Of a stretch of DNA of 64,000 nucleotides, positions 16,789-16,809 are shown piece after piece; within the stretch, counting starts at the first letter, position 1; every line of letters starts with the position of its first letter. The position numbers and the translations under genes were made by a program. The notes under the pieces are model-generated. The model worked only from the letters and a program-made list of their open reading frames with translations, was not told where the DNA came from and did not search any database. The stretch is from NCBI RefSeq assembly GCF_044324785.1, contig NZ_CP172127.1, one strand, 5' to 3'. Source of the stretch: Escherichia coli. GTDB taxonomy: Bacteria > Pseudomonadota > Gammaproteobacteria > Enterobacterales > Enterobacteriaceae.

Positions 16789-16809
16789 GCCGGTAGCTCT
16801 GCTACCGGC
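16789..16809 (+). other. Intra-operon stem-loop between pilin and chaperone genes
   Basis: GCCGGTAGC-TCT-GCTACCGGC perfect hairpin without a clear T-run. Confidence 0.35.

Follow-up and report, generated by a model that had tools for sequence, protein, structure and literature searches.

A covarying hairpin between the pilin and chaperone genes of a fimbrial operon from O-island 1 of Escherichia coli is a candidate leaky terminator and mRNA stabilizer

What role could a hairpin play when it stands between the pilin gene of a fimbrial operon and the gene for the chaperone? The question is raised by a locus in the window, the whole 64-kb stretch of E. coli DNA analyzed here, in which open reading frames and Pfam matches delineate a pilin, a chaperone, an usher and a fourth gene in that order (Table 1), which is the layout of the Stc/Yeh type. 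The pilin and chaperone genes are separated by 49 nt, the sole sizeable gap in the operon (the other two junctions measure 12 and 12 nt), and it is this gap that houses the hairpin. The first-pass annotation had described a perfect stem-loop here, placed 9 bp past the stop codon of the pilin gene and lacking a T-run behind it, and had taken it for an element of mRNA stability or partial termination within the operon, of the kind that in known fimbrial operons sets the pilin excess over the assembly proteins. The inverted repeat and its flanking genes are exactly as it gave them. The distance is right for the start of the 9-bp stem, at the ninth nucleotide past the pilin stop codon (TAA, 16778–16780), and not for the intervening spacer, which has 8 nt. 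Downstream, the core stem ends 20 nt before the GTG start codon of the chaperone gene and 9 nt before its Shine-Dalgarno (SD) motif.

Table 1. Positions of the operon genes and of the elements of the pilin–chaperone junction in the window.
Feature	Position	Strand	Basis and remarks
Major pilin gene, 177 aa	16247–16780	+	PF00419 (Fimbrial), E = 4.7e-9; annotated as "fimbrial protein" in O157:H7
Spacer CGTTTTTT, 8 nt, from pilin stop to stem	16781–16788	+	Sequence
Extended 10-bp stem	16788–16810	+	Adds the pair T16788–A16810; terminator-like scan, MFE fold
Core hairpin	16789–16809	+	9-bp stem GCCGGTAGC/GCTACCGGC, loop TCT; read from the sequence, covariation in homologs
Strain-private C	16809	+	Usual G·U pair at the base of the stem becomes G-C; alignment A1, genome and metagenome matches
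U-rich tail TTATTTAC	16811–16818	+	5/8 T, broken by A16813; U4–U6 runs at the same position in homologs
Chaperone Shine-Dalgarno GGAG	16819–16822	+	7 nt before the GTG, outside the hairpin; sequence
Periplasmic chaperone gene, 227 aa, GTG start	16830–17513	+	PapD_N (E = 3e-41), PapD_C; same RefSeq start in O157:H7
Usher gene, 816 aa	17526–19976	+	12 nt past the chaperone stop; Usher, PapC_N and PapC_C domains
Fourth gene, adhesin-like, 319 aa	19989–20948	+	No Pfam match; intact in the window, frameshifted in O157:H7

The operon sits between rpsT/espX1 and nhaR/nhaA, and the same locus in O157:H7 EDL933 is O-island 1, a putative fimbrial island spanning z0020–z0025 (PMC10877973). Its chaperone is 57–62% identical to Salmonella StcB and to the chaperones of the Citrobacter yeh loci, and the genes for these StcB-type and Citrobacter chaperones adjoin mrp and yehE, i.e., they occupy the yeh/stc locus. 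Since the chaperone genes of the relatives lie at mrp/yehE while the window operon lies at espX1–nhaR and away from the orthologous yeh position, we assign it, on gene content and neighborhood, to E. coli O-island 1 as a paralog, and not an ortholog, of yehDCBA/stcABCD. The yad, yeh and yfc operons have been characterized as "functional but cryptic" (Wurpel et al., PMC3559732). On the espX1 side, the homolog of this type III effector gene (14525–15945, + strand) is broken into two open reading frames, 14525–15085 and 15241–15945; the gene is intact in O157:H7, with 1,422 nt, whereas the split copy in this strain has probably become a pseudogene, the status that RefSeq assigns to it in several other E. 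coli. On the nhaR side, an 8-bp G+C hairpin, CUCCCCCA-N9-UGGGGGAG (20954–20978), lies where the fourth gene (stop at 20948) and nhaR (stop at 20986) converge, within the 37 nt that separate their stops, and is followed by no U-run on either strand.

The hairpin at the pilin–chaperone junction is real. The computed energy of the 9-bp stem is -16.0 kcal/mol and that of the extended 10-bp stem about -17.6 kcal/mol; the latter, as found by the terminator-like scan, comprises 10 pairs of which 7 are G-C, and all 10 are used in the minimum free energy (MFE) fold. In its 91-nt context the hairpin has a folding z-score of -3.0 relative to shuffled sequences. A count across the window of perfect stems with 9 bp or more and a loop of 3–8 nt gave 18 nested hits at 9 distinct sites against 1.8 hits expected from Markov shuffles, and the hairpin is therefore beyond chance. 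Two further perfect inverted repeats of the operon lie within open reading frames. One is a 9-bp repeat inside the pilin gene, TTCGACAAC-AGATATC-GTTGTCGAA (16384–16408). The other is a 16-bp repeat with an 8-nt loop inside the usher gene, ATGATATTGGCAGAAA-AAATAGTC-TTTCTGCCAATATCAT (18931–18970, + strand), which encodes YDIGRKNSLSANIM; both of its arms are present in O157:H7 with one loop change, and it falls at the exact spot where 8 residues found in YehB, StcC and the Citrobacter ushers (ADYYQNDF) are missing from this usher, which suggests that a deletion or template-switch event made or perfected this palindrome.

Within E. coli, the perfect stem is peculiar to this strain. The stem was correctly called perfect as far as the window itself is concerned; elsewhere position 16809 is a T, forming a G·U pair, in all seven of the other E. 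coli sequences sampled (alignment A1), and this one sampled difference, G·U as against G-C, retains the pair. Among the 1,195 complete genomes of E. coli that have the element, not one matches the 40-nt spacer at 100%, and the 19 full-length matches listed, of about 1,195 genomes, all differ from the window spacer by one base; among metagenome contigs, an exact-match scan recovered the T form 26 times and the C form 0 times. The same 40-nt query hits one place per genome in 1,210 genomes, unlike the many copies of a REP/BIME element, and we accordingly rejected a REP-like dispersed repeat. Among 5,426 complete E. coli genomes, ~1,200 have an intact pilin–chaperone region. In ~2,400 of the 3,635 E. 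coli genomes that match, all that is left is the ~100 nt upstream of the pilin gene, joined directly to a 5′-truncated usher pseudogene (corresponding to window positions 16100–16202 and downstream; 5001–6432 in the O111:NM sequence L002), and this common deletion takes out the pilin, the hairpin, the chaperone and the N-terminus of the usher. In strain EC2, an IS1 element is inserted right at the chaperone start, just past the hairpin.

We compared the junction with those of relatives drawn from species-representative genomes and from contigs encoding homologs of the chaperone. A GC-rich hairpin soon after the pilin stop was found in all 14 Stc/Yeh-like junctions, namely those of the window, O157:H7, three Salmonella, six Citrobacter or related loci (C. 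koseri, C. amalonaticus, C. freundii, C. werkmanii, C. gillenii and the contig L058), Superficieibacter, UBA7338 and K-12 yehD, with junction MFE values of about -18 to -26 kcal/mol. The stem varies from 8 to 13 bp and the loop from 3 to 5 nt, the loop and flanks are not conserved, and the CCGG core of the stem is unchanged across the homologs. For covariation we used the 11 sequences that aligned in register with MAFFT (alignment A3), leaving out one Salmonella junction (L060) and K-12 yehD, which were out of register in alignment A2 and each have a hairpin of their own. In this set, 95.5% of the cells of the 10-pair helix form a standard pair, with compensatory double changes in seven of the ten pairs and the remaining three invariant. 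The covariation score of 0.513 stands against 0.296 ± 0.041 for shuffled alignments, none of 500 of which reached the observed value; sliding the 3′ partner by 1–3 columns as a control left 18–68% of the cells paired, and RNAalifold independently predicts the same helix. This pattern indicates, at the level of comparative sequence, that the helix is under selection as a structure, and, with its stable stem placed past the major-subunit cistron and ahead of the assembly genes, the hairpin resembles the intercistronic mRNA stabilizers of fimbrial operons (pap, cfa and fim type).

The position of the hairpin is conserved on one side. In the window and in the 11 other Stc/Yeh-like junctions scanned for spacing, the stem starts +3 to +10 nt from the stop codon, the exception being K-12 yehD, where it starts at about +36; in homologs, 20 to about 90 nt separate the hairpin from the chaperone start, whereas its separation from the pilin stop remains small. 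Beyond these relatives, unrelated hairpins are found at the pilin–chaperone junction in Morganella, Acinetobacter, Pseudomonas, Pseudogulbenkiania and some Burkholderiales. In a set of 39 loci, which includes many close relatives and hence gives counts that lack independence, the median energy of the best hairpin at the junction is -14.2 kcal/mol as opposed to -4.4 kcal/mol for random 70-nt windows; in 28 of these loci the junction hairpin outdoes 95% or more of the random 70-nt windows taken from the same locus.

The comparison also bears on the annotation of K-12, in which the yehD–yehC junction lies at 5601–5646 on the minus strand of the locus extracted here (L053; NC_000913.3, about 2191600–2191645). 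The homologous hairpin, GGCCGCUAU-CCC-AUGGCGGCC followed by UUUUAAUUU, has the annotated ATG of yehC at its 5′ edge, and the N-terminus given in the annotation, MAAIPWRPFNLRGIK, is followed by an evident signal peptide, MKGLLSLLIFSMVLPAHA, that has an SD of its own (AAGAGG). Judging from these features, the true yehC start is probably 15 codons downstream of the annotated one, and we flag the present start, a codon within the homologous hairpin, as a likely annotation error.

With respect to termination, the hairpin presents the stem of an intrinsic terminator, i.e., a GC-rich stem-loop on the sense strand with a 3-nt loop, 7–8 nt past the pilin stop, and it tops the list of terminator-like sites between 14 and 22 kb of the window, where 11 sites were detected against 6.3 ± 2.3 expected. 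The statement that no T-run follows proved half right: the tail after the 10-bp stem reads A-TTATTTAC, with 5 T in 8 nt, and, written as UUAUUUAC, its U-tract is interrupted and is nevertheless accepted by the scan as terminator-like. The premise was thus too strict, and the termination half of the first-pass reading is therefore more plausible, not less. The spacer is T-rich on both flanks of the stem, with a U6 run directly 5′ of the hairpin and the U-rich tail 3′ of it, and on inspection of the aligned sequences the 5′ flank is about as T-rich as the 3′ flank; hence, the U-richness 3′ of the stem is by itself no specific signal. Among the homologs, at least 5 U in 8 nt are seen in eight of the 12 distinct Stc/Yeh-like tails, with runs such as U6 (UUUUUU) in Salmonella stc, U5 (UUUUU) in UBA7338, AGUUUUU in C. 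freundii, U5 in C. amalonaticus (UUGUUUUU) and U4AAU3 in K-12 yehD. In three of the 12 the run is weak or absent (C. werkmanii, AAUAAGGA; Salmonella L051, AGUUAAUC; C. koseri, GCUAAUUU), which implies that the hairpin can persist without a terminator tail. Two other candidates for the spacer were rejected. A bidirectional terminator is at odds with the minus strand, where the palindrome is followed by AAAAAACG and no U-run; an internal promoter matches 9/12 positions at 16814–16843, but its -10 element lies within the chaperone open reading frame, and promoter-like sites are fewer than expected by chance (17 as against 27 in shuffles). In K-12 Term-seq data (Adams et al. 2021), no 3′ end is listed for yehD or yehC, presumably because the operon is silent or cryptic, and a literature search found no direct transcript evidence on a yehD terminator or on the O157 locus tags.

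We propose, with a probability of roughly 65%, that the hairpin is a leaky Rho-independent terminator that also serves as a 3′ decay barrier and, thereby, sets the pilin excess. This agrees with the function first suggested for it, which is the best-supported reading on comparative grounds: the covariation, the U-runs in the sister operons, the unrelated hairpins in distant relatives and the placement in the sole sizeable gap of the operon all point to it. In the mechanism that we infer, the 10-bp hairpin would form in the wake of RNA polymerase over a U-tract, UUAUUU, that is weak and interrupted, such that a fraction of the transcripts ends at about 16811–16818; the hairpin would then keep 3′-5′ exonucleases from entering the monocistronic pilin mRNA at its 3′ end, while read-through transcripts would supply the chaperone, the usher and the fourth gene, with the net outcome that the pilin message exceeds the assembly-gene message. 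Leakiness is expected because the U-tract is imperfect and the stem lies 7–8 nt from the pilin stop, where a trailing or terminating ribosome could cover the spacer and the 5′ arm and block folding. By analogy, a terminating ribosome 7–8 nt upstream probably weakens the hairpin: a terminator placed 5 bp past a stop codon dropped from ~90% to <10% efficiency, and uncoupling translation restored it (PMC4824070). Such an element could explain how the cryptic O-island 1 operon and its yeh/stc relatives might make far more pilin than chaperone or usher from one promoter, and the covariation provides evidence for a kind of feature that is usually asserted from a single sequence.

The first alternative dispenses with termination altogether. 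Under it, the full operon would be transcribed, endonucleases would cut downstream, and the pilin segment, protected by the hairpin as a pure decay barrier, would outlive the rest. This is plausible because some homologs (C. werkmanii, Salmonella L051 and C. koseri) keep the hairpin without a U-run; it is also consistent with the interruption of the E. coli U-tract, with the differential decay documented for papBA and cfaAB (PMC5927463), and with the Term-seq 3′ end of fimA, which has no U-run after it in the listed sequence. It has to contend with the U4–U6 runs that come straight after the stem in most homologs and with the terminator-like properties of the site itself, and the two mechanisms are compatible with each other. 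We consider decay protection as the sole function rather unlikely.

A more elaborate version of the terminator reading would turn the short spacing between stop codon and stem into a translation-sensing attenuator, in which the closeness of the lead ribosome to RNA polymerase on the pilin gene sets the degree of read-through and couples pilin translation to the dosage of the assembly genes and, by way of FmrA, to the decision for fimbriae or for motility. The z0021 gene encodes FmrA, which is reported to repress flagellar motility (PMC10877973). In O157:H7, the fourth gene (9890–10850 of the O157:H7 locus, L001) is frameshifted into open reading frames of 108 and 227 aa, and from the gene order the 108-aa N-terminal fragment should be z0021. 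The FmrA gene thus appears to lie downstream of the hairpin in O157:H7, and therefore the efficiency of read-through could, on this arrangement of genes, also affect motility. We offer the attenuator as a tentative and unlikely extension, to which a small RNA function of the released hairpin might be added.

That latter function could also stand as an explanation on its own, in which the hairpin is the body of a FimR2-like sRNA released by nucleases from the pilin 3′ UTR and acting in trans, for instance on motility or biofilm genes. FimR2 itself, a 35-nt RNA cut by RNase E from the fimA 3′ UTR, requires its stem-loop (PMC9723502), and the U6 before and the U-rich tail after our hairpin are reminiscent of such an RNA. 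However, an Rfam scan of 15900–17700 at E ≤ 10 gave no match at the hairpin or close to it, the hits elsewhere in that interval being weak and well short of the gathering scores; the pairing is kept while the loop and flanks are not, as befits a structural element and not a base-pairing regulator; and the operon is poorly expressed. As an sRNA would in any case add to the terminator and decay-barrier reading instead of replacing it, we hold it to be very unlikely as the primary function. It is still more improbable that the hairpin controls translation of the chaperone by access to the ribosome-binding site or by re-initiation after the pilin stop: the nearness of the stem to the SD, the weak GTG start and a weak second hairpin near the SD and start codon in the MFE fold would suit such control, but the second hairpin has just 5 bp, neither the SD nor the start codon is part of the conserved helix, and the spacing to the start is variable while that to the pilin stop is short, all of which disfavors this function. 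Finally, a DNA-level palindrome (a site for a dimeric protein or a cruciform), a chance occurrence or a REP-like mobile repeat is scarcely credible, as, for all that the 21-bp palindrome is perfect and its CCGG core invariant, stem and loop lengths and seven of ten paired positions vary with compensation, unlike a protein site. Moreover, distant genera have hairpins of unrelated sequence at this junction, a dispersed repeat is hard to reconcile with one copy in each genome, and chance would yield about 1.8 perfect-stem hits over all 64 kb.

The terminator and decay-barrier reading places the hairpin among several known systems. The closest functional precedents are the terminator structure at the 3′ end of papA and the differential decay of cfaAB, both as described in PMC5927463. 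In pap, a terminator or stabilizing stem-loop likewise comes immediately behind the gene for the major subunit, with the assembly genes downstream of it, and the presumed outcome of pilin excess is the same. The pap system also needs RNase E cleavage between papB and papA and a protective 5′ hairpin, whereas the window operon has no papB-like gene upstream of the pilin; moreover, pap belongs to a different chaperone–usher clade, and its structure has no sequence homology to the window hairpin. In type 1 fimbriae, the fimA–fimI spacer resembles the window in being a structured region after the pilin gene where transcripts end, with a primary fimA 3′ end at 4543708 in the K-12 Term-seq list, and the FimR2 hairpin is located in the fimA 3′ UTR just as the window hairpin is in that of its pilin (PMC9723502). 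There, however, the next gene is fimI and not a chaperone, the spacer yields the characterized 35-nt sRNA, and there is no sequence similarity to the window.

The junctions of K-12 yehD–yehC and Salmonella stcA–stcB, for whose hairpins our literature search found no published description, are instead true homologs: they share the stem with the CCGG core, the same junction and the same four-gene layout, and differ in their mrp–yehE location as opposed to espX1–nhaR, in U-runs that are cleaner than that of the window and, for yehD, in a hairpin 36 nt past the stop as against 8 nt. The tR2 reporter provides the parallel for the spacing, with a hairpin and U-tract a few nucleotides past a stop codon as in the window, where 5 bp gave <10% and 28 bp ~90% termination (PMC4824070); it is an engineered lambda construct with a strong U-tract, and the corresponding ribosome effect in the window is suggested by the spacing. 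Set against these systems, a pilin-distal terminator or stabilizer hairpin in a chaperone–usher operon is an ordinary, well-known arrangement, and the only mildly new angle is the conserved closeness of the hairpin to the stop codon.
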